Positions 1 through 14,604 are shown, counted from the first letter of the stretch. The stretch: DNA of 14,604 bases from a virus (IMGVR_UViG_3300009180_000026); one strand, 5' to 3'. Translations and numbers: made by a program. The notes: generated by a model not told the origin, from the sequence alone.

Positions 1-987
1 ACTGATTATAAGACTTATATGGACCTTCTTGATCTTAGAAACATCGATAAGCCTCTTTGGAGAGCTGCTATTAAGGAGTTTCAATCTATTGTAGAAATGT
101 ACAATAAAGAATGGCAAGATCTTGATGCATTAGTAGTTCCTCAATCCTTTATAGACAGTAAGAAGAAAGTTAAAATTAGTGTTTCTGGAGGCACACCTGG
201 TGTAAGAAGACAAAAGCTTAAAGGTGAAATAGTTGGTAAAGAAGCTTCTCCATTAGAAAGAGATGTATATGGTCAGAATTGTAAGTTTGTTCCTACAACA
301 TATGTATTAGAGAACGCTCACAAGCTACCATATCTACATGTTTATGGTTCTCAAGCTGATAAAGATACACTTGATCGTTTATATGGTGCATTTAATAAAT
401 GTCGCAAGAACATTAAATTCATCATGTTTTCTGAAAGAGAACTTAACAACTTAGAGAAAGTAGAATTACACAACTGGATAAAACTTGATAAATTTATGAA
501 AGGAGACAACAAACCATTTAAGAGAATAGTGACAGCTTATTTAGTAAAGAAGCTTTATGAGAAGAACAGATCGGTGTTTCAAAGAAATCACCACATGTTA
601 TCAATCTCTGAAGATCTTTACAATAAAATTGTAATGCTTGGTAAATATCAAGATGCTTATCATCCTGGATATATGTCTGCAGATACAGAAGCTATTATAT
701 TCAGTGAGCTTTTAGAAATAGCTGAAGCTAAAGATCTATTTGATGGTGAAGTCTATCCTATTTATCAGGAAGTTAAAGAGGTTCTTGAGAAGTTCCCATT
801 CATTGAGAATGTATTTAGTGTAATGAAAAGCTGGGGAGGTGATGATCCTTTACAACAAGTTGTTATTGATCTTTTGAAGTATAATAGACATAGAGTTAAT
901 TTAAAGAATTACACTGTTAAACTTACAGAAGATGCTCCTTTAGAGCAAGAATTAACTGAAGATGTTGTAGAAAATCTACAGGATTAA
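1..987 (+). CDS. 5'-truncated protein, probably the C-terminal part of an rIIA-like protein
   Basis: Frame 1 is open from base 1 (ACT GAT TAT AAG ACT TAT ATG), so the gene starts upstream of the window. It lies directly before an rIIB-like gene, the usual rIIA position. The diagnostic N-terminal GHKL ATPase domain is not visible, so the call is by synteny only. Confidence 0.45.
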   Translation, partial: TDYKTYMDLLDLRNIDKPLWRAAIKEFQSIVEMYNKEWQDLDALVVPQSFIDSKKKVKISVSGGTPGVRRQKLKGEIVGKEASPLERDVYGQNCKFVPTTYVLENAHKLPYLHVYGSQADKDTLDRLYGAFNKCRKNIKFIMFSERELNNLEKVELHNWIKLDKFMKGDNKPFKRIVTAYLVKKLYEKNRSVFQRNHHMLSISEDLYNKIVMLGKYQDAYHPGYMSADTEAIIFSELLEIAEAKDLFDGEVYPIYQEVKEVLEKFPFIENVFSVMKSWGGDDPLQQVVIDLLKYNRHRVNLKNYTVKLTEDAPLEQELTEDVVENLQD

Positions 988-1019
988 TTTGGTATTATGT
1001 ATAATTTTTAGTATATTTA
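988..1019 (+). promoter_or_regulatory. Bacteroidota sigma-A type promoter, TTTG-N20-TATATTTA
   Basis: TTTG at 988-991 and TATATTTA at 1012-1019, 20-bp spacer; matches the -33/-7 consensus TTTG / TAnnTTTG except the last base; intergenic. Confidence 0.65.
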
Positions 1020-1047
1020 GGGGGTACAAAGCCCCCATTTTATTTTT
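1020..1047 (+). terminator. Probable intrinsic terminator
   Basis: GGGGGT-ACAAA-GCCCCC stem-loop (1020-1036) followed by ATTTTATTTTT. Confidence 0.5.
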
Positions 1048-1066
1048 CATTTAAAAACAAAAAAAC

Positions 1067-2542
1067 ATGAGCAATTTTAGCATTGACTGGTTCAAACAAG
1101 AATTAGCAAAATTACAATTAGAAGAACAAAAACTTAAGAACGAAATGATGAGACTTGAGTTGGAAGAAAAACAAAAAGAATATGATGAGGATTGTGGATG
1201 CAATGGTGATGATTGGGACATTGAGAATGAATTTGATGAGGATGATTTGTGGAATGAAAACTACAGCAGTGAGGAAGAATATGTTCCTTACATCAAACCT
1301 TACATGCATTTAAAGATGGTGAATGATGTATTGACCATTGTATTACAAAACGGTGATATCATCAGTAAACCAAATGCTACACAGGATGATTTCAAAACTG
1401 CACAAAATGCTACTAGTGAAGCAGATCTATTTACACTTGTTATGTCTCAAGAAGTTAGAGATGATAAGATGAAAAGAGATGCTGAAGTGAGTAGAATGAA
1501 GGCTATTCAAAAAGGATTGAATGAACTTGCAAGCTTTAATGATTTTGTTGTAGATGGTTACACTGTATATCTTAAGGGTATTAGTAGAAGTCTTCCACAA
1601 ATTCTTGTTGAAGAGTTCTTGGCAATCATTGGTGCTTATTCTAACATGGGAATTAGCAATGATGAAATAGAGAAATCTCTACCGTATAACGAAAGTTATC
1701 AAGGTCTTAAGAGATTCTTTATGTGGTGTTGCTTAAATCCAAGAGCAGAAGTTGCACATGAGTTGTACAGATTCTTGAAAGAGAATTCCTTCAGAATCAC
1801 AAAACAAGGTTTCTTTGTTGCTCTTAGAAATGTTGTTAGCTTATGTGATGATACAGCTCTTGTAGATTTTGTAAGCAATTCTTACAACAAGATTAAAGCT
1901 ATCTGGAAGAAAGATCCTTCTAACTTTAATATATGGAGAGATAGTAATGACTTCTTACATCTACAGGATTTTAACTATCAACCTAGTGTAGACATGACAA
2001 ATGTTGGTAATCTAACAGATTTATATTTGGAACTTCCAGAAATGAAGAGCAATCGTTACACAGATGCATGGACTAAAACATTTGACATTCGTGTAGGTGT
2101 TCCTGTAAATATGCCTATGAGTGATTGTAACTGGAGTACACAAGATTGTGCTGCTGCAGGATTGCATTTCACAGCTGATCACATCAACTATGTAGGATGT
2201 GGTGATACATCTATGTTAATCTTGATTAATCCAATGAAGGTTGTTGGTATTGGTGAATTCAAAGGTCGTTGCTATGAATATCTTCCATTAATGACTGTTC
2301 CTACAGAAGAGTCTACAACTATTCTTCACGATCTTAATTTTGATACATTAGAATTAGATGATCAATATGCTGTTCGTGAACTGCAAACATTGGTTGAAAG
2401 AACACAAGCAGGATTTGTAGCAGAATCTCGTAAGTATGATTTTAACATTCCTAACATTTCTATTGCAGAAATAAAAGGAATTACAGCTTCACTTGAAGAG
2501 ATGTATTCAGAAATTGCAGATAGAGTTAAATCTATTAACTAA
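1067..2542 (+). CDS. rIIB: rIIB-like protein with N-terminal coiled-coil/acidic extension
   Basis: The C-terminal half matches the T4 rIIB motif series: FFMWCCLNPRAEVAHELYRFL, ITKQGFFVALRNV, YTDAWTKTFDIRVGVPVNMP, DCAAAGLHF, LILINPMKVV. A-rich start context AAAAACAAAAAAAC-ATG. Confidence 0.75.
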   Translation: MSNFSIDWFKQELAKLQLEEQKLKNEMMRLELEEKQKEYDEDCGCNGDDWDIENEFDEDDLWNENYSSEEEYVPYIKPYMHLKMVNDVLTIVLQNGDIISKPNATQDDFKTAQNATSEADLFTLVMSQEVRDDKMKRDAEVSRMKAIQKGLNELASFNDFVVDGYTVYLKGISRSLPQILVEEFLAIIGAYSNMGISNDEIEKSLPYNESYQGLKRFFMWCCLNPRAEVAHELYRFLKENSFRITKQGFFVALRNVVSLCDDTALVDFVSNSYNKIKAIWKKDPSNFNIWRDSNDFLHLQDFNYQPSVDMTNVGNLTDLYLELPEMKSNRYTDAWTKTFDIRVGVPVNMPMSDCNWSTQDCAAAGLHFTADHINYVGCGDTSMLILINPMKVVGIGEFKGRCYEYLPLMTVPTEESTTILHDLNFDTLELDDQYAVRELQTLVERTQAGFVAESRKYDFNIPNISIAEIKGITASLEEMYSEIADRVKSIN

Positions 2543-2591
2543 TTAAAATAATATACCCCATTTATTCTTATATTTGGGGTATATTTTAATT
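2541..2591. other. Intergenic inverted repeat (hairpin/cruciform; possible terminator) enclosing a promoter box
   Basis: ATATACCCCA (2551-2560) and TGGGGTATAT (2575-2584) form a perfect 10-bp stem, extendable by AATTAAA/TTTAATT across a 3-nt bulge; 14-nt loop. Confidence 0.7.
2569..2576 (+). promoter_or_regulatory. Bacteroidota -7 element TATATTTG
   Basis: Exact TAnnTTTG in the intergenic space ahead of the HNH gene; no TTTG at the -33 position. Confidence 0.5.
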
Positions 2592-2594
2592 ATT

Positions 2595-2993
2595 ATGGCT
2601 ACAAAAAGAAAAAAGGCTGTTGCTAAACCTAAAACACTAAAGACTAGAAATGCAGGCACTATGACAGAGTCTGCATTTTGGTCTTTTATTAGAAGTGGAC
2701 TAAGACAAAAGAGTAGGTTTTGGAAACCTATTACACAATGTAAGATGAGTAACAGAAGAGTGTATAAAGGACCTCTCAAGAGGCAGAAGTTTGAATATCA
2801 GTGTGCAGAGTGTTCTCAGTGGTTTCCTGAGAAGAAAATTAATGTTGACCACATTACACCTGCTGGATCTTTAAGATGTGCTGATGACCTCCCAGGGTTT
2901 GTAGAAAGACTGTTCTGTGAAATTGACAACTTACAAATCTTGTGCTCCACCTGTCACAATGTTAAAACTCAAAATGAAAAAGATGGAAGATGA
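2595..2993 (+). CDS. HNH endonuclease (phage, Zn-binding)
   Basis: YQCAEC...NVDHITP...RLFCEIDNLQILCSTCHNVKT: two CxxC pairs with DH and N catalytic residues. ATG 2595 preferred over TTG 2574, which falls inside the promoter hairpin. Confidence 0.85.
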   Translation: MATKRKKAVAKPKTLKTRNAGTMTESAFWSFIRSGLRQKSRFWKPITQCKMSNRRVYKGPLKRQKFEYQCAECSQWFPEKKINVDHITPAGSLRCADDLPGFVERLFCEIDNLQILCSTCHNVKTQNEKDGR

Positions 2994-3231
2994 AAAACAA
3001 TTAAAGGTCTCTATTAACAAAGAACCTTCATTTACAGAGATTTGGTATGAAGGATCTGTTGAATACAATGGAGAAGAACACAAGTTTTGGTTGATACATC
3101 CTTTGCAAACAGATGTGAATGGTGCACACTATGAAGTGGACGTTAGATGGTTCTTTGCTAGAGTTCCAAGGGAAGTGAGAGCAATGATTCCATATATTAT
3201 TGACGCATTTAAACAAACATTAAAAACATGA
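2983..3231 (+). CDS. Hypothetical protein (82 aa)
   Basis: ATG 2983 overlaps the HNH stop; ends with an ATGA overlap into the next gene; composition is protein-like. Confidence 0.7.
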   Translation: MEDEKQLKVSINKEPSFTEIWYEGSVEYNGEEHKFWLIHPLQTDVNGAHYEVDVRWFFARVPREVRAMIPYIIDAFKQTLKT

Positions 3232-4274
3232 TAAAAACAGAAAAGAGTTACAGGGCCATACAAATGGACAGTTCAAGTTCTTTAAAAGAATTCTCAACTA
3301 ACAGAAAGAAGTATTACAAAAAGTATATACTGAATGAAAGAGTTGAAGAAGAAGATAACAAAGCTGCCACTATAGGCAGAGTGGTAGAAACCTTGTTGTT
3401 AGAACCACATGAGTTTGATGGTAGATTTTACATGTCTACATGTGCAAGTGCTCCTACAGGGCTTATGTTAGCTTTTGTAGAGGCTTTATATAAGCACACT
3501 ATGGCAAACACAGATGAGAATGGAAACATCAGTGTAGAGTTTGAAGAGATTTGTAAAGCAGCTTATGCTGATTCAGGATTCAAGATTAAATTTGATGCTG
3601 TATTAGCCAAGTTTATAGGAAGTGATGCTGAAATCTTCTATAAGGAACTAAGAGAAGTGAAAAGCAAAGGTCTTACAGTGGTTACAACAGAAGATGTCAC
3701 TAATGCTGAAAACATTGTTACAGAGTTAAAAAGTAACTTTGTCACTGCAGAAGTGGTAAATCTTGTAAATAGTGCTAGATGGACTGTTAATAATCAGTTC
3801 CAGATAGAAGGTTATAGTGTTGATGGCCATTTGTTTAAGAGCATGATGGATAAGATAGTTATTGATCATAACGAAAGAACAATACAAGTGTACGATCTTA
3901 AATGTACATGGAGTGTTGAGAACTTCTATGAGGAATACTATCTCTATCGTAGAGCTTACATCCAAGCCTATCTTTATTATAAAGGAGCACAATCTCTTAC
4001 CATCCATCAGGAAAGTGAACTTTATGGATATGAGGTGGTCTATCCAAAGTTTATTGTATGCGATAGTACAAACTATTTCAATCCATTAATCTATACGCTT
4101 GATTTCACAGATATGACAAATGCATATGAAGGATTTGTTCATAAAGGTAGATTTTATCCAGGTGTGAAACAGCTTATTGAAGATCTTGAATGGGCTATTG
4201 AGAATGATGTTTGGAACATTAGTAGGGAAAATTATTTAAATCATGGATTTGTAAATGTAAAAGGAGGAAATTAA
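3228..4274 (+). CDS. PD-(D/E)XK nuclease, RecE/exonuclease VIII-like
   Basis: N-terminal SSSSLKEF...IGRVVETLLLEP and C-terminal FKSMMDKIVID...VYDLKCT...YIQAYLY motifs typical of ExoVIII-like phage exonucleases. Confidence 0.8.
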   Translation: MIKTEKSYRAIQMDSSSSLKEFSTNRKKYYKKYILNERVEEEDNKAATIGRVVETLLLEPHEFDGRFYMSTCASAPTGLMLAFVEALYKHTMANTDENGNISVEFEEICKAAYADSGFKIKFDAVLAKFIGSDAEIFYKELREVKSKGLTVVTTEDVTNAENIVTELKSNFVTAEVVNLVNSARWTVNNQFQIEGYSVDGHLFKSMMDKIVIDHNERTIQVYDLKCTWSVENFYEEYYLYRRAYIQAYLYYKGAQSLTIHQESELYGYEVVYPKFIVCDSTNYFNPLIYTLDFTDMTNAYEGFVHKGRFYPGVKQLIEDLEWAIENDVWNISRENYLNHGFVNVKGGN

Positions 4275-4825
4275 TGGAGATAAAAAAGACCATCACTAGT
4301 ATATTCATAATGCCTACATTGAAAATAGGTAGAGAAAGGTTGCTTGGAAATGGATATATTAATGGATATATAAAAGATGAGGGAAAGGATGTACAATATC
4401 AAAACGCTGTATATGCTCTTTTCAAACCAAAAAAGATGGATGCTTTCCGTGAGTTTCTTGATGAAGAATATGCAAGAACAAACCAAATCATAGATGATTA
4501 TGATTATCCAGATGGGTTCGTTGTTGTTGTATATAACTTGGATGAGAAATTTAAGAAAGACTTCCTTCTTATTAAAGAAGGACTCTATTCTAAAACTTCC
4601 AAAGAGTTTCAAGCTCAGTTTCCAAAGATTGTAAAACTATTTAAGAATGGGCTTCATAAGGATGAAATCTCTCTTCAATATCGTGTCTTCAATAAGACAG
4701 AAGATCTTAAGAAATATTGGGAAGAAAAACTTGGTGTAGAATTCGATGATTCTATGGAAGTTTGGGATGGTTTTAACATTGATAAAGAAACTCTCAACCT
4801 TAATAAAATTAAACAATATGTATAA
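4274..4825 (+). CDS. Hypothetical protein (183 aa)
   Basis: TAATG coupling to the upstream gene; long ORF in the operon direction; no recognisable motif. Confidence 0.8.
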   Translation: MEIKKTITSIFIMPTLKIGRERLLGNGYINGYIKDEGKDVQYQNAVYALFKPKKMDAFREFLDEEYARTNQIIDDYDYPDGFVVVVYNLDEKFKKDFLLIKEGLYSKTSKEFQAQFPKIVKLFKNGLHKDEISLQYRVFNKTEDLKKYWEEKLGVEFDDSMEVWDGFNIDKETLNLNKIKQYV

Positions 4826-5015
4826 CGAACTATTATTAACAAAGTTAATTGCTGATTTTGGTGTAGACCAAACTATTACTTATTGTAAAATGGAAAGTGC
4901 AAAGAATGCCTATCTGTTTGAAGAGTGTGTTGCTTCAGGTGAAGATCTCACTTGTACACAATATGATTTTGAAAGAGATTGGTGGAAAAATGCAGAATTA
5001 AAATTAAAATCTTAA
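4818..5015 (+). CDS. Hypothetical protein (65 aa)
   Basis: ATG 4818 overlaps the previous stop (ATGTATAA); fills the gap in the operon. Confidence 0.65.
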   Translation: MYNELLLTKLIADFGVDQTITYCKMESAKNAYLFEECVASGEDLTCTQYDFERDWWKNAELKLKS

Positions 5016-5018
5016 ATT

Positions 5019-5375
5019 ATGAAAATGTTAGAACTATTAAAAGAACATCCTAAAACAGCCATTGTTATAAAACAATGGTTTTTAGAGAAGATGTTAGAAA
5101 GTCTTAAAGATGAATCTCTTCCTGAAGATTTCAAAGATTATGTAAGAGAACAAGGAATAGATGATGAGAAGATAGCAAATATGGTGGAAACTTCTCCTAG
5201 AAGTCTATTTGATATATTTGATGATCATAAACTGTACATCAATATTGACATGACTGCAGGTCATTGGGGATGGGAAGTTGGATCATCTGTTGAAAATGCT
5301 GTATGCTCATCTAGAAAAGAAGCTGAGATGGCAGCTATTGTTGAATCATTTAAATTATTGGAGGAAAAATTATGA
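5019..5375 (+). CDS. Hypothetical protein (118 aa)
   Basis: ATG 3 nt after the previous stop; ATGA overlap with the next gene. Confidence 0.75.
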   Translation: MKMLELLKEHPKTAIVIKQWFLEKMLESLKDESLPEDFKDYVREQGIDDEKIANMVETSPRSLFDIFDDHKLYINIDMTAGHWGWEVGSSVENAVCSSRKEAEMAAIVESFKLLEEKL

Positions 5376-5623
5376 GAGACAAAATAGTAGATGATGTAAT
5401 AGATAAATACTATGAGAGAAGTCAAGTGGGAATCACTAAATATGGAACCACGTTGTATAACAACAATAAAGACAACTATCTCAAGCATTTACAAGAAGAA
5501 CTTATGGATGCCACTCTGTACATTGAGAAACTCATGTATCTAAGGGAAGAACTAACGTGTTTAGTTAACACTTATGATAATGATGCAGATCTTGGTGCAG
5601 CTGTAAGGATTTTTGTTAAGTGA
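5372..5623 (+). CDS. Small all-alpha MazG-like nucleotide pyrophosphohydrolase (putative)
   Basis: DKIVDDVIDKYYERSQVGITKYGTTL...HLQEELMDATLYIEK: KYG and EExxD motifs of small phage NTP-PPase-like proteins; adjacent to nrdJ. Confidence 0.5.
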   Translation: MRDKIVDDVIDKYYERSQVGITKYGTTLYNNNKDNYLKHLQEELMDATLYIEKLMYLREELTCLVNTYDNDADLGAAVRIFVK

Positions 5624-5636
5624 TATTTTTAATTTA

Positions 5637-5669
5637 TTTGGATTATAAGGGCTGTAAGTTGTATATTTA
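5637..5669 (+). promoter_or_regulatory. Bacteroidota-type promoter TTTG-N21-TATATTTA for nrdJ
   Basis: TTTG at 5637-5640 and TATATTTA at 5662-5669; the -7 box is identical to that at 1012-1019. Confidence 0.65.
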
Positions 5670-5685
5670 CAGCCCTTTATTTTTT
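5647..5685 (+). terminator. Intrinsic terminator overlapping the nrdJ promoter
   Basis: AAGGGCTGTAA (5647-5657) and TTACAGCCCTT (5667-5677) form a perfect 11-bp stem with a 9-nt loop, followed by TATTTTTT. Confidence 0.7.
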
Positions 5686-5706
5686 AACAATTAAACAAAA
5701 ACATTT

Positions 5707-7557
5707 ATGGATTTAGGATTACAAGCTCTCTCGGACATAACTGTATACAGTAAATATGCAAAGTTTGTTCCAGAGAAGAAGAGAAGAGAAACTTGGGATG
5801 AAATCATTGATCGTTATCAGGATATGATGATTAAGAAATACCCAATGCTTGAAGAGGCTATTATTAAAAGTGCTGAATTGATTAGATTGAAGAAAGTCCT
5901 ACCATCAATGAGAGCTTTACAGTTTGCAGGTGCTGCAGCTGAGGTGAACAATGCAAGAATTTACAACTGTTGTTTCCTTCCTATAGACAGTCTTCACAGT
6001 TTTAGTGAAACAATGTTCTTATTATTAGGAGGAACAGGTGTTGGATATTCTGTACAGAAACATCACGTTGAACAACTTCCAGCTATTACAAAACCAGGTA
6101 AGAAGAAAACATATCTTATTGAGGATTCTATAATGGGATGGGCTGATGCTGTAAAGGTGTTATTCAAAGCTTATATGGAAGGTAAGTTTATGCCTTCATT
6201 TGATTTTAGAGCTATTAGACACAAAGGTGCTAGACTTGTCACTGCTGGTGGTAAAGCTCCTGGTCCTGAACCATTAAAACTTTGTCTCACACACGTACAA
6301 GCTATTTTAGACAGAAAACAGGAAGGAGAACATCTATCTCCTATAGAAGCACATGATATATTGTGTCACATTGCTAACTCTGTATTAGCAGGTGGTATTA
6401 GAAGAAGCGCTATGATTGCATTGTTTAGCCTTGATGATGAGGAAATGATTACATGTAAATACGGTAATTGGTGGGAAACAAATGAACAACGTGGTAGGGC
6501 TAACAATTCTGCTGTTCTTGAGAGAGGAAATGTCTTAGCTACAGAATTCTTTGATCTTTGGAAGAGAATAGAAGCTTCTGGATCTGGAGAACCTGGAATC
6601 TATTGGACTAACAATAAAGATTGGGGAACTAATCCTTGTTGTGAGATTGCTCTTAGGCCATATCAATTCTGTAACCTTTGCGAGATAAATGTAAGTGATA
6701 TTGAAAGTCAGATAGATCTTAATGATCGTGTATCTGTAGCAGCATTCTTTGGTACATTACAAGCTGGGTTTACAGACTTCCATTACTTACGTCCTATATG
6801 GAAACAAACTACAGATAAAGATGGTTTGTTAGGAATAGGAATGACAGGAATTGGTTCAGGAAAGATTCTTGAGGCAGACCTTGAAATAGCAGCTAACACA
6901 GCTACTGTTGTGAATTCTACAATTTCAGCTATAATAGGAACTAATGAAGCAGCTCGTGTAACATGTATAAAACCATCAGGTACAACAAGTTGTGTATTAG
7001 GAACAGCTAGTGGTATTCATGCTTGGCATGCTCCATATTACTTAAGAACAATTAGATTTAATAAGAATGAAGATATTGCAATGTTTATGGAAGTAAATCA
7101 TCCTGAACTATGTGAAGATGATGTGCTTAGACCAAAAGATACATTGTGTATAAGAATTCCTATTAAAGCTCCAGAAGGTTCTATATTCAGAACAGAAACA
7201 GCTATTGATACATTAGAACGTGTTAAGAAGTTTTCTATAGAATGGGTGAAAGCAGGACATGTTAGAGGTGATAACACACATAATGTAAGTGCTACAATTT
7301 CTGTTAATAATGATGAATGGCCTACAGTGGGAGAATGGATGTGGAATGAACGAGATCATTACAATGGTCTTTCAGTTTTACCATATTTTGGAGGTTCTTA
7401 CAAACAAGCTCCTTTTGAGGACATAACAGAGGAAGAATATAATTCTAGGATAGGTCATTTAAAATCCTTAGATTTGACAAAAGTTATGGAAATAGATGAT
7501 AACGTAGAATTTGGTCAGACAGCAGCATGCGCAGGTGGTGCATGTGCTATAGAATAA
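5707..7557 (+). CDS. nrdJ: Class II (adenosylcobalamin-dependent) ribonucleotide reductase, monomeric type
   Basis: YNCCF, GGTGVGYSV, AGGIRRSAMI, SGEPG, GTNPCCEI (thiyl-radical Cys), QFCNLCE, TCIKPSGT and C-terminal CAGGAC redox pair; no ATP cone; no beta-subunit gene follows. Confidence 0.93.
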   Translation: MDLGLQALSDITVYSKYAKFVPEKKRRETWDEIIDRYQDMMIKKYPMLEEAIIKSAELIRLKKVLPSMRALQFAGAAAEVNNARIYNCCFLPIDSLHSFSETMFLLLGGTGVGYSVQKHHVEQLPAITKPGKKKTYLIEDSIMGWADAVKVLFKAYMEGKFMPSFDFRAIRHKGARLVTAGGKAPGPEPLKLCLTHVQAILDRKQEGEHLSPIEAHDILCHIANSVLAGGIRRSAMIALFSLDDEEMITCKYGNWWETNEQRGRANNSAVLERGNVLATEFFDLWKRIEASGSGEPGIYWTNNKDWGTNPCCEIALRPYQFCNLCEINVSDIESQIDLNDRVSVAAFFGTLQAGFTDFHYLRPIWKQTTDKDGLLGIGMTGIGSGKILEADLEIAANTATVVNSTISAIIGTNEAARVTCIKPSGTTSCVLGTASGIHAWHAPYYLRTIRFNKNEDIAMFMEVNHPELCEDDVLRPKDTLCIRIPIKAPEGSIFRTETAIDTLERVKKFSIEWVKAGHVRGDNTHNVSATISVNNDEWPTVGEWMWNERDHYNGLSVLPYFGGSYKQAPFEDITEEEYNSRIGHLKSLDLTKVMEIDDNVEFGQTAACAGGACAIE

Positions 7558-7594
7558 TATTGTTTTTGTTTCGTTTTTGATGATTGATGATTAC

Positions 7595-7631
7595 AGCCCC
7601 ATTGTTTCTACAATTTGGGGCTCTTTTTTTT
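7595..7631 (+). terminator. Rho-independent terminator after nrdJ
   Basis: AGCCCC-ATTG-tttcta-CAAT-tt-GGGGCT stem-loop (7595-7622) followed by C and an 8-T run. Confidence 0.8.
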
Positions 7632-7660
7632 GTCAAAACGAGAATAATTAATTAACTTTA
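7629..7660 (+). promoter_or_regulatory. Bacteroidota-type promoter TTTG-N20-TAACTTTA for recA
   Basis: TTTG at 7629-7632 (end of the terminator T-tract) and TAACTTTA at 7653-7660, 20-bp spacer; 20 nt upstream of the recA ATG. Confidence 0.6.
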
Positions 7661-7680
7661 CAGACTAAAAATCAATCAAT

Positions 7681-8706
7681 ATGGCGAAAGCAAAAGAAGC
7701 TCCAGAGAGCAAAGGTAAATTTCAAGATGCACTTGATAAGCTAAACAAAGCTTATGGTGTAGGAACTGTTCTTACATTAGACAGTAAAACCACTGGTGAT
7801 TATGATCTTATTAGCACAGGAAGTGTGGGATTTGATCACATCACATTAGGAACAGGTGGATTTGTTAAAGGTAAGATGTATGAACTTATGGGATGGGAAG
7901 GTTCAGGTAAATCAACAATTTGTGGACATGCTGTAGCAGAATGCCAAAAGAAAGGTGGTGTTGTTCTGTATATAGATGGTGAGCATGCTGTTGATAAACA
8001 TTATTTTGAAGCATTGGGTGTAGACACTACAAAGATGCTTATTGCCCAACCATCATGTGGTGAGGAAGGTTTCAACATTGCTATGGAGATGATTGAAACA
8101 GGAACCATCGATCTTATTATCATAGATTCAGATTCTAGTCTTATTCCTAAGAAAGTCTTAGATGGTGAGGTGGGTGATTCTTCTATTGGTAAGAAAGCTC
8201 TGCTTAATTCAAATGCCTATCCAAAGCTTAAAGGTGCTTTGTCTCAACACAATGTATGTGTAATTGTTATTTCTCAGTATAGAGAAAAGATAGGTGTTAT
8301 GTTTGGTAATCCTACAACAACTCAGGGAGGACATGCTCTTAAGTTTTATTCAGATGTTCGTATAGAAGTGTCTAAATCTCTTGCTAAAGAAGGAGATCAA
8401 GCTTATGGTAACATCACCAAGGTGAAAGCTATTAAGAACAAGATGAGTCCTCCATATAGACTATCTAGTTTTGAAATCATCTATGGCCAGGGTATTGATA
8501 AGATTGGAGAACTAATGGAACTCATTAACGAGTTTGAGATAGGTAGAAAGTATGGTAAGACAATGACCATAAATGAAATCAAATATGATCTTGAAGATTT
8601 CAAAAGAATGTTAATGGACAATGAAGAATTCTATAATGACATTGTGAAACAAATTTTAAACAAAATTAATAACGTAAAAATTGAAGAAAATGCAGGTGAA
8701 ATTTAA
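7681..8706 (+). CDS. recA: RecA-family recombinase (phage-encoded)
   Basis: ISTGSVGFD..LGTGG, ELMGWEGSGKST (Walker A), YIDGEHAVD, LIIIDS (Walker B), QYREKIGVMFGNPTTTQGGHALKFYSDVRIEV, KNKMSPPYR. Confidence 0.95.
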   Translation: MAKAKEAPESKGKFQDALDKLNKAYGVGTVLTLDSKTTGDYDLISTGSVGFDHITLGTGGFVKGKMYELMGWEGSGKSTICGHAVAECQKKGGVVLYIDGEHAVDKHYFEALGVDTTKMLIAQPSCGEEGFNIAMEMIETGTIDLIIIDSDSSLIPKKVLDGEVGDSSIGKKALLNSNAYPKLKGALSQHNVCVIVISQYREKIGVMFGNPTTTQGGHALKFYSDVRIEVSKSLAKEGDQAYGNITKVKAIKNKMSPPYRLSSFEIIYGQGIDKIGELMELINEFEIGRKYGKTMTINEIKYDLEDFKRMLMDNEEFYNDIVKQILNKINNVKIEENAGEI

Positions 8707-9256
8707 AAAATTACATGCAAATGCTCAACTTCCTGTAAAGGGGAGTGAGCATGCTGCGTGTTTTGATGTTTATGCTACAAGTGTAACAGCAGAATATGGT
8801 GGAAAGGTTACATATGGATTAGGATTTGCAACAGAAATTCCAGTGGGCTATATGGGAATATTAGTTCCTAGAAGCAACATCACTAAACATAAATGGGTGA
8901 TGAACAATTCTACAGGTATAATTGACAGTGATTATAGAGGAGAGTGGATGATGAAGCTCAATTCTATAGGAAAAGATTTTGAAGAACTTCCATATGCTGT
9001 AGGAGATAGAATAGGACAAATCTATTTCATACCAATCCTTCCTACCACCTTTGAAGAAGTCTCATCATTAGATGATTCTGCAAGAGGAGAGGGTGGATTT
9101 GGTTCTACAGGAATAGGAGTGTTAAATATTCATTCTTCTGGAACTGATCTTGATAAAACGTGGATTGATGAAATTCATAATACCAATTATTATATTGATC
9201 CTAAATTCATAACTACAACAAACATTGCAGATGGGAAAATTAATATTACAGCTTGA
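8690..9256 (+). CDS. dut: Trimeric dUTPase with a 47-aa C-terminal extension
   Basis: All five motifs present: ACFDVYA, PRSN, GIIDSDYRGE, GDRIGQ, RGEGGFGSTG. ATG 8690 preferred over TTG 8681. Confidence 0.92.
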   Translation: MQVKFKKLHANAQLPVKGSEHAACFDVYATSVTAEYGGKVTYGLGFATEIPVGYMGILVPRSNITKHKWVMNNSTGIIDSDYRGEWMMKLNSIGKDFEELPYAVGDRIGQIYFIPILPTTFEEVSSLDDSARGEGGFGSTGIGVLNIHSSGTDLDKTWIDEIHNTNYYIDPKFITTTNIADGKINITA

Positions 9257-9458
9257 TGATGATGAAATGAATATATTTAAGAAACAATATGTAAACCTTG
9301 TAGATCTTCATGATGAAATTGAAAAGCTTTTTGAAGAAGGAGAAAAGCTTGACAAGCGTAAGAAGAAAGCTTATGCAGAATGGAAAGAAAAGATTAACTT
9401 TCTGATTGATGTATATAATACAAGGGCAACGTTTAAAACCTATAACAAAGTAAAATGA
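9231..9458 (+). CDS. Hypothetical helical protein (75 aa)
   Basis: ATG 9231 overlaps the end of dut; ATGA overlap into the next gene; charged amphipathic helices. Confidence 0.65.
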   Translation: MGKLILQLDDDEMNIFKKQYVNLVDLHDEIEKLFEEGEKLDKRKKKAYAEWKEKINFLIDVYNTRATFKTYNKVK

Positions 9459-10138
9459 GAATATTGCACATTAGTGACACCCATAGCTATCATGAGATGT
9501 TTCCTATGGAGAGATTTAAAGACATAGATGTTGTTGTACACTCAGGAGATTGTTCCAATTATAAAGATCATATTAGGAATGAACAAGAAGTTAGAGCTTT
9601 CATAGCTTGGTATAAAGATGTTCCTGTTAAACACAAAATTTATGTAGCAGGTAATCATGATACTAGCATAGAAAGAAACAGAGTTACACCAGCAGATTTT
9701 CATTCTGAAGGAATCACCTATCTTGAGAATGCAGGCACCACTATAGATGGTGTTAAGTTTTGGGGAAGTCCTCACACTCCTACATTTGGTCAATGGGCTT
9801 TTATGAAAAGTAGACAAACCATTAACAGAGTGTGGCAGAACATTCCTATAGATGTAGATGTTCTTATAACCCACGGTCCTCCTAAAGGTGTAAGAGATCT
9901 CTCACATGATAGAGATGGAATCCTTGAATTCTGTGGAGACAGTGCTCTTATGAAAGCTGTATGGGGATTGAAACCAAAATGTATGTTGTTTGGACATATA
10001 CACAACTCTCCAGGATGTGATAATCAAGGAATCTCTCATTATTCTAAAACACCAACAATCTTTTCTAACGCTTCATGTGTAGATGATGGAAGATTTGATC
10101 TAGGACTTACATCATTTGGAAATATAATTGAAATATGA
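9455..10138 (+). CDS. Calcineurin-like metallophosphoesterase, MPPED1/2 (239FB)-like
   Basis: HISDTH, HSGDC, VAGNHD, LITHGPP.G, PKCMLFGHIH, FSNAS: the full metal-ligand set in the subfamily-typical arrangement. Confidence 0.88.
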   Translation: MRILHISDTHSYHEMFPMERFKDIDVVVHSGDCSNYKDHIRNEQEVRAFIAWYKDVPVKHKIYVAGNHDTSIERNRVTPADFHSEGITYLENAGTTIDGVKFWGSPHTPTFGQWAFMKSRQTINRVWQNIPIDVDVLITHGPPKGVRDLSHDRDGILEFCGDSALMKAVWGLKPKCMLFGHIHNSPGCDNQGISHYSKTPTIFSNASCVDDGRFDLGLTSFGNIIEI

Positions 10139-10527
10139 AATGTAAAACATGTGGGAAAAACTCAGAATCAGAATATTGCTTCCAACATAAACCAAGAAAG
10201 CCTCTTAAAAGTGTAAAATTTTCAACAGTTAAACGGAAAACTTCCGATGATTCAGCACAAATTTTACAAATGCAAGAGTTCTTCCTTGATATATGGAGAA
10301 AGAGAAAAGAACACAACTGTGAAAACTGTAAGAAGTGGCTTGGTAGTGAGCCACTTTCTTATATGTTTGATCATCTTCTTGAGAAAAGTAAATACCCTGA
10401 TCTCAAACTTAAAGAAGAAAATATAATGTTAGTGTGTTTAGAATGTCACGATCTTAAAACAAGAGGTTTTGTAACTGATTTTGTTAGAGATAAAATAGAA
10501 GAAGTTAGGAACAAGTTTGATAAATAG
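10135..10527 (+). CDS. Zn-finger plus HNH-like nuclease
   Basis: N-terminal CKTC...YCFQH; C-terminal CENC...FDHLLEKS...EENIMLVCLECHD (HNH-like core). Confidence 0.65.
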   Translation: MKCKTCGKNSESEYCFQHKPRKPLKSVKFSTVKRKTSDDSAQILQMQEFFLDIWRKRKEHNCENCKKWLGSEPLSYMFDHLLEKSKYPDLKLKEENIMLVCLECHDLKTRGFVTDFVRDKIEEVRNKFDK

Positions 10528-10528
10528 T

Positions 10529-10536
10529 TATCTTTG
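10529..10536 (+). promoter_or_regulatory. Bacteroidota -7 element TATCTTTG upstream of phoH
   Basis: Exact TAnnTTTG in a 22-bp intergenic gap; a near-consensus TTAG lies 20 bp upstream (10505-10508). Confidence 0.45.
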
Positions 10537-10549
10537 GTAAAACTTAAAT

Positions 10550-11200
10550 ATGAAAGAACCTAACAGAGAACGTAAACAAGACATTAAATATAAAATTACA
10601 TTAAACGAAGAACAGAAAGAAGCTAAAAGACTCATCCTTGAAAATCAGATTGTGATCATCACTGGTAGAGCTGGTTGTGGTAAGAGTCTTGTTAGTGCTC
10701 AAGTTGCTTTAGATTTCCTTTTTAAAAAACAATGTGATCAAATCCTAATTACAAGAGCTGCTATTGAGGTGGGTAAAAGTCTTGGGTTTCTACCAGGAAG
10801 CCTTGATGAAAAGTTTGATCCTTATTTAGAAGCATTTCAAGAAAATCTTATGAAGTGTTATGATAAGGTGAAAGTGGAAGAGATGGTCACTGCTAAAAAG
10901 ATCAATGCACTACCTGTACAGTTTATAAGAGGAAAAACAATTGATGATATATTGATTGTAGAAGAAGCCCAAAACTTAAGCAAAGCAGAGATGTTAGCAA
11001 TTGTTACAAGACTAGGAAAGAATGGTAAGATTATAATTAATGGAGACAATGAACAAAAGGATATTAGAGATGAGTTTAATGGCCTAAGTTTCATCACCTC
11101 TCTTGTTAAGAAGATTCCAGAGATTAAATATATAAATCTCAAACACAACCACAGGTCTGATCTTGTGGGTAAAATTTTAGAATTAGAATACGGTAAATAA
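10550..11200 (+). CDS. phoH: PhoH-like ATPase
   Basis: ITGRAGCGKS (P-loop), TRAAIEVGKSLGFLPG, FIRGKT, IVEEAQN, RLGKNGKIIINGD..QKD, RSDLV. Confidence 0.92.
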   Translation: MKEPNRERKQDIKYKITLNEEQKEAKRLILENQIVIITGRAGCGKSLVSAQVALDFLFKKQCDQILITRAAIEVGKSLGFLPGSLDEKFDPYLEAFQENLMKCYDKVKVEEMVTAKKINALPVQFIRGKTIDDILIVEEAQNLSKAEMLAIVTRLGKNGKIIINGDNEQKDIRDEFNGLSFITSLVKKIPEIKYINLKHNHRSDLVGKILELEYGK

Positions 11201-11216
11201 TTAAAACCAAATAAAC

Positions 11217-11516
11217 ATGAATCAATTTTTCTACACTCGTAAAGAGCTTGTATCTGGAACACCAGAAAATCCTGAATTCAAAGAGTTCAGAGACAGTTTT
11301 AACATCAACAAGGTTGTGAGAACAATCACTATGATTGATGAACGTACATTAGTTTTATTAGATGATCTACATGAAAGAGCTCAAGAAGTTCCTGATATAG
11401 ATCCTAAAACAAATAAGATGAGAGCTATGAAACGTGTTAAAGACACCTTCCAATCTGAGATCTATCTTGATCCTTCAGATGCTGTTAGATTCCAAAAAGT
11501 CACATCTCTAGACTAA
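11217..11516 (+). CDS. Hypothetical protein (99 aa), last gene of the rightward arm
   Basis: A-rich start AAAACCAAATAAAC-ATG; ends just before the bidirectional terminator. Confidence 0.8.
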   Translation: MNQFFYTRKELVSGTPENPEFKEFRDSFNINKVVRTITMIDERTLVLLDDLHERAQEVPDIDPKTNKMRAMKRVKDTFQSEIYLDPSDAVRFQKVTSLD

Positions 11517-11524
11517 TAGAAATA

Positions 11525-11553
11525 AAAAAGCCCTCTTAAATTGAGGGCTTTTT
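11525..11553. terminator. Bidirectional intrinsic terminator
   Basis: AAAAAGCCCTC-ttaaatt-GAGGGCTTTTT perfect inverted repeat, with T-tracts on both strands, between convergent gene arms. Confidence 0.9.
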
Positions 11554-11997: not shown

Positions 11998-12177
11998 TTA
12001 TTTTGATAATCTTTTTTGCATCATTGGTTGCATAGGTGATGTTCGTATTGCTTTATCATCCATAGATTTATTCTTGGAAAAAGGTTTATCCTTCTTAGGA
12101 ATACCAACCTTTGGAGCTTTTCTTGGAGCTCCTGATTTCTTAGCTTTACCAGCTGTTAAGCCTTTACTTGCAGCCAT
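11998..12177 (-). CDS. Small Lys-rich basic protein (59 aa)
   Basis: MAASKGLTAGKAKKSGAPRKAPKVG...; ATG 12177 overlaps the last codons of the upstream gene and is preferred to the longer start at 12204. Confidence 0.7.
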   Translation of the reverse strand: MAASKGLTAGKAKKSGAPRKAPKVGIPKKDKPFSKNKSMDDKAIRTSPMQPMMQKRLSK

Positions 12178-12466
12178 ACTTACATTTTTTAGCCATCTTA
12201 CCACCTTTTTTCATATCCTGAGTCATCCTACCTCTTGTTTGATCTGATGCACTTTTACTAGCTGCCTGTGCTTGAAGTTGTGAAGTACCAGTTTGAGCCT
12301 TCTTAACCTTCATTCCTTTCTTAGCAATAACACCACGACCTTTAAGAACATCAGCCTTCGTGATTTTACCATCTTTGTTTAAGTCTGGGAATGATTTACC
12401 ATTCTTAGCTTTAGTAGTTCCACCCATCATCTGCATTTTTTTAGCAGGTTTTTTCATTGTAGCCAT
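12164..12466 (-). CDS. Lys/Met-rich basic protein with an EF-hand-like loop (100 aa)
   Basis: Contains DLNKDGKITKAD plus MMGG, KKAQTG and MKKGGK motifs. Confidence 0.85.
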   Translation of the reverse strand: MATMKKPAKKMQMMGGTTKAKNGKSFPDLNKDGKITKADVLKGRGVIAKKGMKVKKAQTGTSQLQAQAASKSASDQTRGRMTQDMKKGGKMAKKCKYGCK

Positions 12467-12469
12467 GAT

Positions 12470-12631
12470 TTATTTTTTTAAAGTGTCAACAATAGTTGTA
12501 TCAATAACTCTAACTGATTCTACAACCTTAGTTGTGTCAGAGATTTTAGTTGAATCAACAGAAACAGTTTCTGTAGAAGCACCACCACATGCTGATAACG
12601 CTACAGCTAATACGAATAACAATTTTTTCAT
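12470..12631 (-). CDS. Mini-lipoprotein (53 aa; absent from the ORF track)
   Basis: MKKLLFVLAVALSA-CGGASTETVSVDSTKISDTTKVVESVRVIDTTIVDTLKK*: basic n-region, hydrophobic h-region, lipobox LSA-C15, Thr/Asp/Val-rich tail. Confidence 0.85.
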   Translation of the reverse strand: MKKLLFVLAVALSACGGASTETVSVDSTKISDTTKVVESVRVIDTTIVDTLKK

Positions 12632-12647
12632 TTTTTATTTTTAAGGT

Positions 12648-13082
12648 TTAACAATTCCATTTTCTTAAAGCTAGTGCTTTTCTTGTAGGTTTACCATTAG
12701 GCTTTTTCATAGGGCCTTTAACTCCACTCATTCTAGCACAAAATGATTTCCTACGTTTAGCAGGTTTGCTATCTGGATCTAATTTAGAAGGCTTTGTTGT
12801 AACAGCCATCTTTAATTTACTTCCAGGATTAGCACGTCTATAACTAGCAACACCTTTTCTATTAAGACCACCTGCAGGATCTTTTCCTTCAGAGCGTGTC
12901 CAAGCAGGTGTACTACCACCATTCTTTAAAGAAGAACCTTTAAATGGACCTTTCTTCTTAATAAGTGGACCATTAGGAACAGGTGTGATTGCACCACCTT
13001 TTCTAAGAACACCTTTTCCTACATAAGCAGAAGCTTTCTGTGGGTTGTAGGGTCCTTTTCCTATTTTCTTAATTGTTGCCAT
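12648..13082 (-). CDS. Basic protein with a widespread phage C-terminal domain (DUF6321-like, from recall)
   Basis: TPAWTRSEGKDPAGGLNRKG...RRKSFCARMSG..GPMKKPNGKPTRKALALRKWNC resembles a recurrent uncharacterised phage domain; Lys/Gly-rich N-terminus. Confidence 0.7.
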   Translation of the reverse strand: MATIKKIGKGPYNPQKASAYVGKGVLRKGGAITPVPNGPLIKKKGPFKGSSLKNGGSTPAWTRSEGKDPAGGLNRKGVASYRRANPGSKLKMAVTTKPSKLDPDSKPAKRRKSFCARMSGVKGPMKKPNGKPTRKALALRKWNC

Positions 13083-14080
13083 TATAATGTATTTCTAAAA
13101 TCAGTTGTAAGATCTGTCCAAGTTCCTGAATTTCTCAACCATAATTCACTGAAAACAATACAAGGTGCATATCCATCATCTACATTAATAAATGTTCCAG
13201 ATAGGAAATAAAGATCTTTTTGCCCTGTAAGAACAGGAATTAATGTATTCTTTAAATCTGTAAAACTTGCTGCTCTTATATATTCTGTAGCTAATTTAAC
13301 ACCAGCACTATATTTAGTGGGGTCTAAAACAAAGTTATAGGGAGCAGAACAAAGTGTAGCTCTGTTTGTATATAGAATATTAGCAAGTGTATAGTATTGA
13401 TCATTATCAGCAAATACACCAGCACCTCTAGTTGGAGCAGAACCACCAGAACCATTTGTCATAACCCAGTTAGCAGCTGTAACAACAGCACCACATGTAT
13501 TATCACTTGTAGCAGAAGTCTTTCCTCTTCTTAACATTCTACCTACATTATCATTAGCAGTAACAAGATCAGCTTGTTGTGTAACTCCTATGTGAGGCAT
13601 GTTAATTAACAATAATGGTCCATCAGTAGGAGTCATTGTTGTAGCATGACTTTGCCAAGCTTGTAATGCTAGAGCTCCTGTATGAGGATAACCAGCTAAT
13701 CCACCACCCATAAATGGTCCAAGATAGGAATTTAATGCTGGAGGATTTTGTCCTATGTTATTAATATCAGCAAACTCAGAAGCATTAACATCATCTGAAC
13801 ACACTGTAAGATTTAAAACTGTATCACTAGTTTTCACACCTCTATCAGAAAGGAATAATTGTAACCTTGTAGTAAGATGTTGAGCTAATACAGCATCTGG
13901 ATAGGTTGTTTGTACAACATCAAGATAGTGCTGAGTAGTCTTATTAAAATATTCTACAGGTTGAACCTCTTTCCATATACCCACCTTAGGAGCATGAGTG
14001 TATAAACCAAGACTTCCTGGTACTATTTCTCCATTTTTTAGAAACCTTGCATAAGGTTTTAACTTTATACTTTTTGCCAT
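13082..14080 (-). CDS. LCIB/theta-type carbonic anhydrase-like protein with an N-terminal phage module
   Basis: Ordered motifs YPDA, TVCSDDVN (C94, D96), FMGGGLAGYPHTG, SH, INMPHIG (H163), GRMLRRG, TCGA (C196), DQ, SGTFINVDDG match the LCIB/C family with Cys-His-Cys Zn ligands. Confidence 0.8.
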   Translation of the reverse strand: MAKSIKLKPYARFLKNGEIVPGSLGLYTHAPKVGIWKEVQPVEYFNKTTQHYLDVVQTTYPDAVLAQHLTTRLQLFLSDRGVKTSDTVLNLTVCSDDVNASEFADINNIGQNPPALNSYLGPFMGGGLAGYPHTGALALQAWQSHATTMTPTDGPLLLINMPHIGVTQQADLVTANDNVGRMLRRGKTSATSDNTCGAVVTAANWVMTNGSGGSAPTRGAGVFADNDQYYTLANILYTNRATLCSAPYNFVLDPTKYSAGVKLATEYIRAASFTDLKNTLIPVLTGQKDLYFLSGTFINVDDGYAPCIVFSELWLRNSGTWTDLTTDFRNTL

Positions 14081-14550
14081 TATTTCTTTTTAGCCATTTT
14101 CTTGAATGTCTTAGCAAGAGCTTTAGCTTTGCCAGTACATCCAGGTTTTGTAATAGGAGTACATTTACCAGCAGTTCCACGTTTCTTAATAGAAGCTGTA
14201 GCTTTCTGTATCCATTTACCATCTTTAGCTTTTGTTACACCACCAGTCTTTTCTTTTTTAATAGAATTCTTTTTATAGTTTTCTTTTCCTTCTTTAGCTC
14301 CCATATGAACTTGAAGGTCACTAAAAAGACCAGCATCACTACCTCTTATTCCTGCTTTATACCCAGCTCTATAATTTGAGCTATCTAAACCAGTTGGTTT
14401 TTTACCAGCTGGTACAAACAAGTCTATATACTTATACTTTGTAGAAGGTCTAGTATTAATAGCAGGCTTTTCTACTCTTGTATTATCAGCTTTAGCTTGA
14501 AGAGGTTTCCCAGAATTTTGGTATTTCTTAACCTTTTTCATTATAGCCAT
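14080..14550 (-). CDS. Lys-rich basic protein (156 aa) with a C-terminal Cys-pair domain
   Basis: KKVKKYQNSG; KTGGVTKAKDGKWIQKATASIKKRGTAGKCTPITKPGCTGKAKALAKTFKKMAKKK; TAATG coupling to the next gene. Confidence 0.85.
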   Translation of the reverse strand: MAIMKKVKKYQNSGKPLQAKADNTRVEKPAINTRPSTKYKYIDLFVPAGKKPTGLDSSNYRAGYKAGIRGSDAGLFSDLQVHMGAKEGKENYKKNSIKKEKTGGVTKAKDGKWIQKATASIKKRGTAGKCTPITKPGCTGKAKALAKTFKKMAKKK

Positions 14551-14552
14551 GA

Positions 14553-14603
14553 CTATTTCTTTTTAGACATTTTACCACCCATTTTTTTCTGAGGAAGACC
14601 TGG
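14553..14603 (-). CDS. C-terminus of another Lys-rich protein (truncated by the window edge)
   Basis: Manual translation ...PGLPQKKMGGKMSKKK* (TAG at 14555-14553), 2 nt before the next ATG; same KxGG motif as its neighbours. Confidence 0.7.
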   Translation of the reverse strand, partial: PGLPQKKMGGKMSKKK

Positions 14604-14604
14604 A

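Follow-up and report, generated by a model that had tools for sequence, protein, structure and literature searches.

Several described systems resemble the gene studied here. Among carbonic anhydrases of the LCIB family, structures have been solved for PtLCIB4 of Phaeodactylum tricornutum and for the protein of PDB entry 6kfs. Vaccinia virus displays on its particle the D8 protein, whose carbonic-anhydrase-like ectodomain binds chondroitin sulfate and performs no catalysis. The Peptidase_S74 chaperone makes phage fibres and spikes trimerise, after which it is removed by cleavage. Phage crAss001 carries the head fibres gp21 and gp29, proteins of 97 and 118 amino acids (aa), which bind pockets at hexon centres, gp21 as a trimer through residues 1-38 and gp29 as a dimer through residues 1-58; the authors note that uncharacterised proteins may take this part in other crassvirus groups (PMC10172136). 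We analysed a stretch of viral DNA, IMGVR_UViG_3300009180_000026 (14,604 nucleotides, referred to as the window), which encodes a protein of 332 aa, P0001. There, an LCIB-type carbonic anhydrase domain is preceded by a short N-terminal module. Judging from sequence comparisons, we consider it fairly probable that P0001 is a virion-mounted enzyme, namely a short fibre or decoration protein displaying carbonic anhydrase. The source phage is uncultured (lake or sea) and its host is probably of the Bacteroidota type.

The C-terminal part of P0001 matched the Pfam family LCIB_C_CA (PF18599) at residues 66-228 (63.9 bits at a cut-off of 25, E = 1.7e-17). A phmmer comparison with PDB sequences retrieved the LCIB proteins 6kfs, PtLCIB4 (5b5y) and 9vzj, in alignments that began at query residue 53-56 and paired residue 53/54 with residue 18/20 of the solved chains. 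We further built an AlphaFold2 (AF2) model on 79 homologues, with a predicted local distance difference test score (pLDDT) of 82. In Foldseek it matched 6kfs (E = 2.5e-13, template modelling (TM) score by target 0.79) and 5b5y (E = 4.5e-13) over approximately 280 aligned columns. TM scores by target to these two structures were 0.76-0.79, CrLCIB and LCIC were matched too, and canonical beta-carbonic anhydrases were far weaker matches (E about 5e-3). Since the model matches 6kfs, PtLCIB4, CrLCIB and LCIC, residues ~53-332 appear to be LCIB fold in their entirety.

From the alignment and the names of deposited mutants (S47R, H88A) we infer that Cys94, Ser95, Asp96, His145, His163 and Cys196 of P0001 are equivalent to Cys46, Ser47, Asp48, His88, His102 and Cys126 of PtLCIB4. 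These six residues and the GGLAGYPHTG loop did not vary in sets of 13 and of 79 phage homologues (40-98% identity). By profile, by its predicted Cys-His-Cys zinc triad with Asp and by its modelled fold, P0001 is an LCIB-family protein in every respect that could be tested. Its algal-type (LCIB) zinc carbonic anhydrase is apparently intact and would be expected to hydrate CO2. The protein shares with PtLCIB4, PtLCIB3 and 6kfs the Pfam family, the fold, the triad, the CSD motif and the His88 equivalent. It differs from PtLCIB4 and 6kfs in that it is only 21-22% identical to them, is encoded by a phage, has insertions at residues 104-128 and around 167-176, and bears a phage module of about 50 N-terminal residues that is absent from algal and bacterial members.

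An earlier note, made on this DNA from the sequence alone, had placed residues 1-46 ahead of the LCIB-like domain and had described a consensus for similar N-termini of many phage proteins. The PDB alignments and the starts of cellular LCIBs agree with the first statement, with about 50 residues lying ahead of the LCIB fold. Of 301 genomes sampled (phylum of a Bacteroidia metagenome-assembled genome, MAG), 39 encoded cellular LCIBs. These were 228-246 aa long, started at query residues 53-60 and gave no match to the hidden Markov model (HMM) of the module. Because cellular LCIBs start there and lack the module, the first ~50 residues of P0001 are an addition. Nearly all homologues of P0001 (n = 324) aligned over 97-100% of its length.

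The module comprises about 40 residues, of which residues 7-39 read LKPYARFLKNGEIVPGSLGLYTHAPKVGIWKEV. It was modelled as three strands with pLDDT ~90, both in full-length P0001 and when residues 1-50 were modelled alone (overall pLDDT of the isolated model 85). A phmmer search of 1.84 billion representatives with residues 1-62 returned 34 proteins of 94-722 aa, together with two likely false matches, and in those 34 the module lay at the extreme N-terminus, frequently in tandem. The tandem-module proteins (alignment A5) were too divergent to serve as a scan query. A pattern scan of IMG/VR found 305 loci with the module. In 80 of these 305 loci we counted 162 open reading frames (ORFs) with the module, always N-terminal, on one strand only and in arrays of 1-4 genes. 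Its start fell at about residue 3-15 in all 172 module ORFs of the fetched loci, and further in only where the ORF start was over-extended. A profile search of 5.8 billion proteins gave at least 1932 module clusters of 129 aa or more, while 185,579 species genomes contained three matches only, all on MAG contigs of 2.5-3.6 kb. The consensus given in the earlier note is therefore real, far beyond chance. Residues 1-46 do have other phage matches and do not belong to cellular LCIBs, so that neither of two sequence findings that the note had named as contradicting it was made.

The three matches in cellular assemblies were L094 and L095 (Bacteroidia MAG) and L096 (Aquiluna MAG). These contigs are probably phage fragments binned into MAGs, and the Bacteroidia ones fit a Bacteroidota host. 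The module family is in neither Pfam nor PHROGs. The copy borne by LCIB is a distinct subtype, 28-59% identical to co-resident copies. We looked for homogenisation of the modules within one genome, which would be a sign of a shared partner, and the modules were not homogenised.

In module proteins (paralogues of 55-165 aa) the usual order after the module is a Cys-Cys pair, a poly-Thr linker, and then either one of at least 22 unrelated C-terminal classes or a Thr tail only. Named partners were Fib_succ_major, Laminin_G_3, DUF285/LRR_5 (BspA-type leucine-rich repeats, LRR), Lcl_C, PKD and Peptidase_S74; others included Cys-rich small domains and mucin-like linkers. Elsewhere in phages, Fib_succ_major forms the C-terminal end of many long fibre-like proteins whose N-termini differ. 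No signal peptides were found in the module proteins. About a quarter of the best profile matches had the Peptidase_S74 intramolecular chaperone with an SD.R.K motif, and the paralogues P0171, P0176 and P0239 consist of the module, poly-Thr and a chaperone with SD(K/I)RLK. The presence of this chaperone on paralogues marks the module family as (trimeric) fibre proteins. The cleavage motif is shared with S74 phage tail fibres and spikes of the endosialidase type; the S74 paralogues (131-160 aa) are far shorter than classical tail spikes, and P0001 itself has no S74 domain (PF13884), this being a feature of the family. Such a set of features, with domains of extracellular type, small domains rich in disulfides, mucin-like linkers and a chaperone for fibres, would be expected of proteins exposed on the released particle.

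These comparisons support residues 1-46 as an autonomous, phage-restricted N-terminal module bearing exchangeable C-terminal domains. The earlier note had seen in it a capsid-attachment or packaging adaptor for interchangeable cargo. The interchangeable cargo was found, and it is of the fibre or display type. An attachment-type module agrees with the fibre-type partners and with the second clade described below; a packaging adaptor is less likely, because the partners are of extracellular type.

Two further observations concern the architecture of these proteins. Self-cleavage of P0171, P0176 or P0239 would leave the module and a Thr tail, which equals many of the module-only ORFs of 55-70 aa. 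Another N-terminal handle, module B, also occurs (M.IP..QIG.....NLLWQISKQLE.L). It is probably helical, always starts at residue 6 and precedes poly-Thr and a cargo that varies (Laminin_G_3, Fib_succ_major or none). It was found at 6639-7907 (minus strand) of G001, the genome record nearest to the window, and in 54 ORFs in loci L009-L175 (e.g. L072:3351-3491, L136:9249-9974). Module B genes lie upstream of a conserved transferase-like gene and genes of the module found in P0001 (module A) lie downstream of it.

A second clade of phage LCIBs has a different N-terminus. In about a third of the homologues listed (e.g. P0080, P0108, P0116) the first strand of the module is replaced by one of two other N-termini. 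That of clade 2 (P0080), MANLTLR.KGSALT..E.DGNFEY, is common to non-LCIB fibre proteins with SASY and GN repeats (83-93% identity, contigs up to 172 kb). The clade-2 locus L182 belongs to a T4-like phage, in the order prohead protease, unknown gene, major head protein (phrog_138), PhoH, 162-aa protein, LCIB, neck-adaptor-like and tail-fibre-like genes. Neither module proteins nor the clade-2 LCIB had any counterpart in PHROGs. Among the best 120 phage LCIB homologues, all carried an N-terminal phage module save evident fragments, and no bare LCIB was present.

In the window, the LCIB gene is on the late/structural strand. The window consists of two convergent arms, a plus-strand arm (19-11516) with replication and nucleotide genes, i.e. 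ribonucleotide reductase (RNR)-like, RecA, dUTPase (dut), metallophosphoesterase, HNH nucleases and PhoH, and a minus-strand arm (14604 down to 11571) with lysine-rich small proteins and P0001. As the earlier note had stated, the gene stands apart from the metabolic genes. It lies on the convergent minus arm, ~1.9 kb from the end of phoH and beyond the terminator-like hairpin (Table 1). Elsewhere, the module genes occupy a constant position next to a glycosyltransferase-like gene, and the LCIB gene of lineage L097 lies within that array, after the endolysin gene and directly before a tandem-module Fib_succ_major (lectin) gene. Physical mounting on the particle is the simplest account, because two unrelated phage lineages join LCIB to fibre N-termini of their own, the genes stand with late or structural genes, and no bare phage copy was found.

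On this account the three-strand module would bind the virion, docking at a site on the particle during assembly, and the distal LCIB-type (theta/beta-like) zinc carbonic anhydrase would be left exposed. The capsid would be the leading candidate for the docking site, with the neck and tail as alternatives, by analogy with gp21 and gp29 of crAss001. Both systems combine a short N-terminal anchor with a small variable distal domain, the phage groups are distantly related by terminase, and the two types of head fibre in crAss001 are paralleled by modules A and B here. Unlike P0001, the crAss001 fibres bear no enzyme. The parallel is one of analogy only, since neither the anchors nor the capsid proteins have detectable similarity in sequence or fold. 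The reaction itself would matter outside the cell, where, for example, respiratory CO2 would be converted at the envelope of the host or within the boundary layer of an alga, shifting local pH or bicarbonate. The purpose of the enzyme, for which the earlier note had proposed pH/CO2 control or a part in DNA ejection, is the weakest step of the proposal.

A number of observations weigh against a carbonic anhydrase on the particle. An enzyme that merely speeds an equilibrium needs flux in order to matter, and any benefit to a free particle is hypothetical. The LCIB gene is ~60 kb from the capsid gene, beyond the lysis cassette, in a variable accessory region. Its module is ~40% identical to that of a co-resident paralogue and lacks the Cys-Cys pair and the poly-Thr linker found there. 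When compared with PDB sequences, neither the capsid protein of G001 nor its 415-aa neighbour could be connected with the capsid or the auxiliary protein of crAss001. The module profile had no matches among PDB sequences, and the isolated module model compared with 48,161 chains (VIA-align) reached a best Z of 2.6, with unrelated chains and none to gp21 or gp29; anchors of 40 residues are near the limit of both methods. A tblastn search of 50,697 GenBank phages with P0001 and a 245-aa paralogue gave no matches, and the nearest cultured phages by terminase (Lbo-JY46, phi17:2) lack the module. Finally, within the LCIB family PtLCIB3 and PtLCIB4 are active and CrLCIB of Chlamydomonas is inactive in vitro (PMC9614477).

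We considered whether P0001 could be a soluble, intracellular auxiliary metabolic enzyme, which would supply more bicarbonate for nucleotide and lipid carboxylations and whose module would serve only oligomerisation or stability. Intact active-site residues, the investment of the genome in nucleotide metabolism (RNR, dut, phoH), the frequent presence of an LCIB in genomes of the host phylum and the position of the gene in an accessory region past the lysis genes, present or absent among close relatives, would all suit such an enzyme. However, the best 120 phage homologues include none that is bare like the cellular LCIBs, and the same module also heads proteins of lectin, LRR and S74-chaperone type, as well as poly-Thr tails, with no metabolic role. 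The gene is also on the late strand, opposite the RNR/dut/phoH arm, and its clade-2 counterpart lies between capsid and neck genes. P0001 is thus not a stand-alone enzyme among metabolic genes, as an auxiliary metabolic gene would be, and we find this explanation unlikely. It seems quite unlikely that the LCIB fold is mounted on the virion without catalytic function, as an adhesin or receptor-binding domain comparable to vaccinia virus D8. The zinc triad, Asp96, His145 and GGLAGYPHTG are invariant down to 40% identity, which is the pattern of a conserved catalytic site and not of a fast-evolving receptor-binding surface. This idea would be in line with the other cargo of the module, which consists of binding domains (Fib_succ_major, Laminin_G_3, LRR, Lcl_C), and with the lack of measurable in-vitro activity of Chlamydomonas LCIB (PMC9614477). 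D8 itself is an animal virus protein of alpha-carbonic-anhydrase fold, without zinc ligands and glycosaminoglycan-binding, whereas P0001 has the beta/LCIB fold with its catalytic residues intact.

The module might also have a role other than docking, either as a handle (leader/core) for the neighbouring glycosyltransferase-like enzyme, or as a packaging signal by which the protein would enter the capsid and later be ejected into the host; this we hold to be very unlikely. Module genes do adjoin a conserved gene of the glycosyltransferase A type (GT-A-like), and many of them encode the module and a poly-Thr tail only, but the LCIB protein lacks a Thr tract that could be glycosylated, and its gene is 2-3 kb from the transferase. 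A reading of the LCIB protein as a leader and core resembling those of ribosomally synthesised and post-translationally modified peptides was rejected, because the cargo is a folded enzyme of 280 residues. For internal packing speak the lysine-rich small proteins around the LCIB gene, which are possible internal proteins, and the cargo proteins carried by crAss-type phages; the known internal proteins of crAss001 are, however, large and without such a tag, and partners such as lectin-type and Cys-rich domains and the S74 chaperone speak for a trimeric fibre on the exterior.

The features of the window are collected in Table 1. TAATG stop/start overlaps couple the LCIB gene on both sides, as the earlier note had reported. 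Such overlaps are frequent in phage operons and unremarkable alone. The description of the gene as locked into a basic-protein operon was overstated: close relatives have the basic/DUF6321 cluster with or without LCIB, and in L097 the gene follows the endolysin. Because the cluster occurs either way, LCIB is an accessory insertion and is not fixed in place. The hairpin is likely to be the end of the transcription unit that holds the LCIB gene. A scan with a Bacteroidota-type promoter pattern and sigma-70 gave no useful information on expression timing.

Table 1. Features of the window around the LCIB gene (positions counted from the first nucleotide of the window).
Feature	Position	Strand	Basis
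Module-LCIB fusion gene P0001, 332 aa	13082..14080, stop codon included	-	ORF list, translation
N-terminal putative docking module, residues ~6-45; beta-strands 8-13, 25-27, 35-38	13946..14065	-	Module HMM envelope 6-45, AF2 models
LCIB-family beta-carbonic-anhydrase domain, residues ~53-332	13085..13924	-	Pfam PF18599, PDB sequence matches, Foldseek
Cys94 codon, predicted first Zn ligand, motif CSDD (Asp96 two residues on)	13799..13801	-	Aligned to CSD of PtLCIB4
His163 codon, predicted second Zn ligand, PHIG motif	13592..13594	-	Aligned to H of SHVGV (PtLCIB4) / PHVGV (6kfs)
Cys196 codon, predicted third Zn ligand, TCGA motif	13493..13495	-	Aligned to CCGSAV of 6kfs/PtLCIB4
Upstream 156-aa lysine-rich protein; stop overlaps LCIB start	14080..14550	-	TAATG at 14082-14078
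Downstream 144-aa basic protein, C-terminal DUF6321; start overlaps LCIB stop	12648..13082	-	TAATG at 13084-13080; Pfam 1.4e-22
Terminator-like hairpin, bidirectional, between convergent late (-) and replication (+) arms	11525..11553		11-bp stem, T runs on both strands

The complete record G001 (113,975 bp, direct terminal repeats) has an LCIB 97% identical to that of the window, which corresponds to G001 100.4-113.9 kb and 0-3.2 kb. Its minus arm carries, in this order, genes for terminase, portal, capsid and tail proteins, then giant ORFs of up to 4441 aa, followed by holin-like and M15 endolysin genes, and continues with a Laminin_G_3 protein, the GT-A-like protein, the module slot, a Dps-like DUF5856 protein, basic proteins, LCIB and DUF6321 proteins. 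The terminase of G001 shares 39% identity with its counterpart in Leptolyngbya phage Lbo-JY46, 34% with those of Cellulophaga phages phi17:2 and phi4:1, and 27-31% with those of gut crAss-like phages. In relatives of ~110-117 kb the slot between the glycosyltransferase-like gene and DUF5856 holds 1-4 module genes with varied cargo. The giant late-strand ORFs of 4441, 1947 and 1585 aa (G001 20680-34005, 14822-20665 and 43192-47949, minus strand) are candidates for a virion RNA polymerase or ejected cargo, as in crAss/N4-type phages.

Directly upstream of the module slot lies a conserved protein of 338-354 aa, phrog_4417 (G001 5594-6622, i.e. L003:5594-6622, minus strand), 2.6 kb past the window end, which is present in L031, L036, L053, L073, L080 and L136 as well. 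Its structural neighbours in the Atlas are HPAT-type, galactosyl- and N-acetylglucosamine (GlcNAc)-transferases. These neighbours, together with the adjoining poly-Thr tails, suggest O-glycosylation of the fibre linkers.

Between the window and G001, the lysine-rich small proteins near LCIB (window 11998-14604, minus strand), several of which carry DUF6321, have diverged far more than LCIB itself (96% identical), with blastn gaps at 12214-12519, 12641-12822, 13005-13083 and 14124-14525. For the 156-aa upstream protein, poorly conserved even in comparison with G001, no Pfam or PHROG family was found. DUF6321 is a C-terminal domain in proteins of 99-928 aa (PHROGs). Window 11670-11792 matches both ends of G001 (113,853-113,975 and 1-123) and so represents the direct terminal repeat of that genome; should this repeat coincide with the true genome ends, the LCIB cluster would lie no more than ~3 kb from a physical end. 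The RNR-like gene encodes 616 aa in the window and 929 aa in G001 (window 6639-6642, G001 107811-108747), the extra ~0.9 kb of G001 possibly being an intein or a mobile intron with a homing endonuclease.

The proposed P0001 would be a fibre or decoration protein of a known kind, with an exchangeable distal domain, here of an enzyme class new to particles. No paper on phage LCIB or on a virion carbonic anhydrase of phages was found in the literature. To our knowledge, the known virion-borne phage enzymes, i.e. depolymerases, lysins and esterases, cut polymers. A carbonic anhydrase on the particle would be a different activity, namely small-molecule chemistry around the host. The handle of 40 residues is an undescribed and very common plug-in module, which appears to let one phage lineage mount many domains. 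It is interesting in terms of phage biology and equally as a scaffold for display. The module-LCIB family is large and well conserved, so that the idea is directly testable. A broader claim, which we put forward tentatively and with considerable doubt, is that several unrelated aquatic phage lineages (crAss/N4-related of ~113-126 kb, and T4-like) display catalytically active carbonic anhydrase on the particle surface. If so, free or adsorbed virions would alter the chemistry of CO2, bicarbonate and pH, either at the envelope of the host or within algal boundary layers. They would represent a class of virion enzyme not aimed at a polymer barrier, with possible effects on adsorption, the triggering of ejection or carbonate nucleation.

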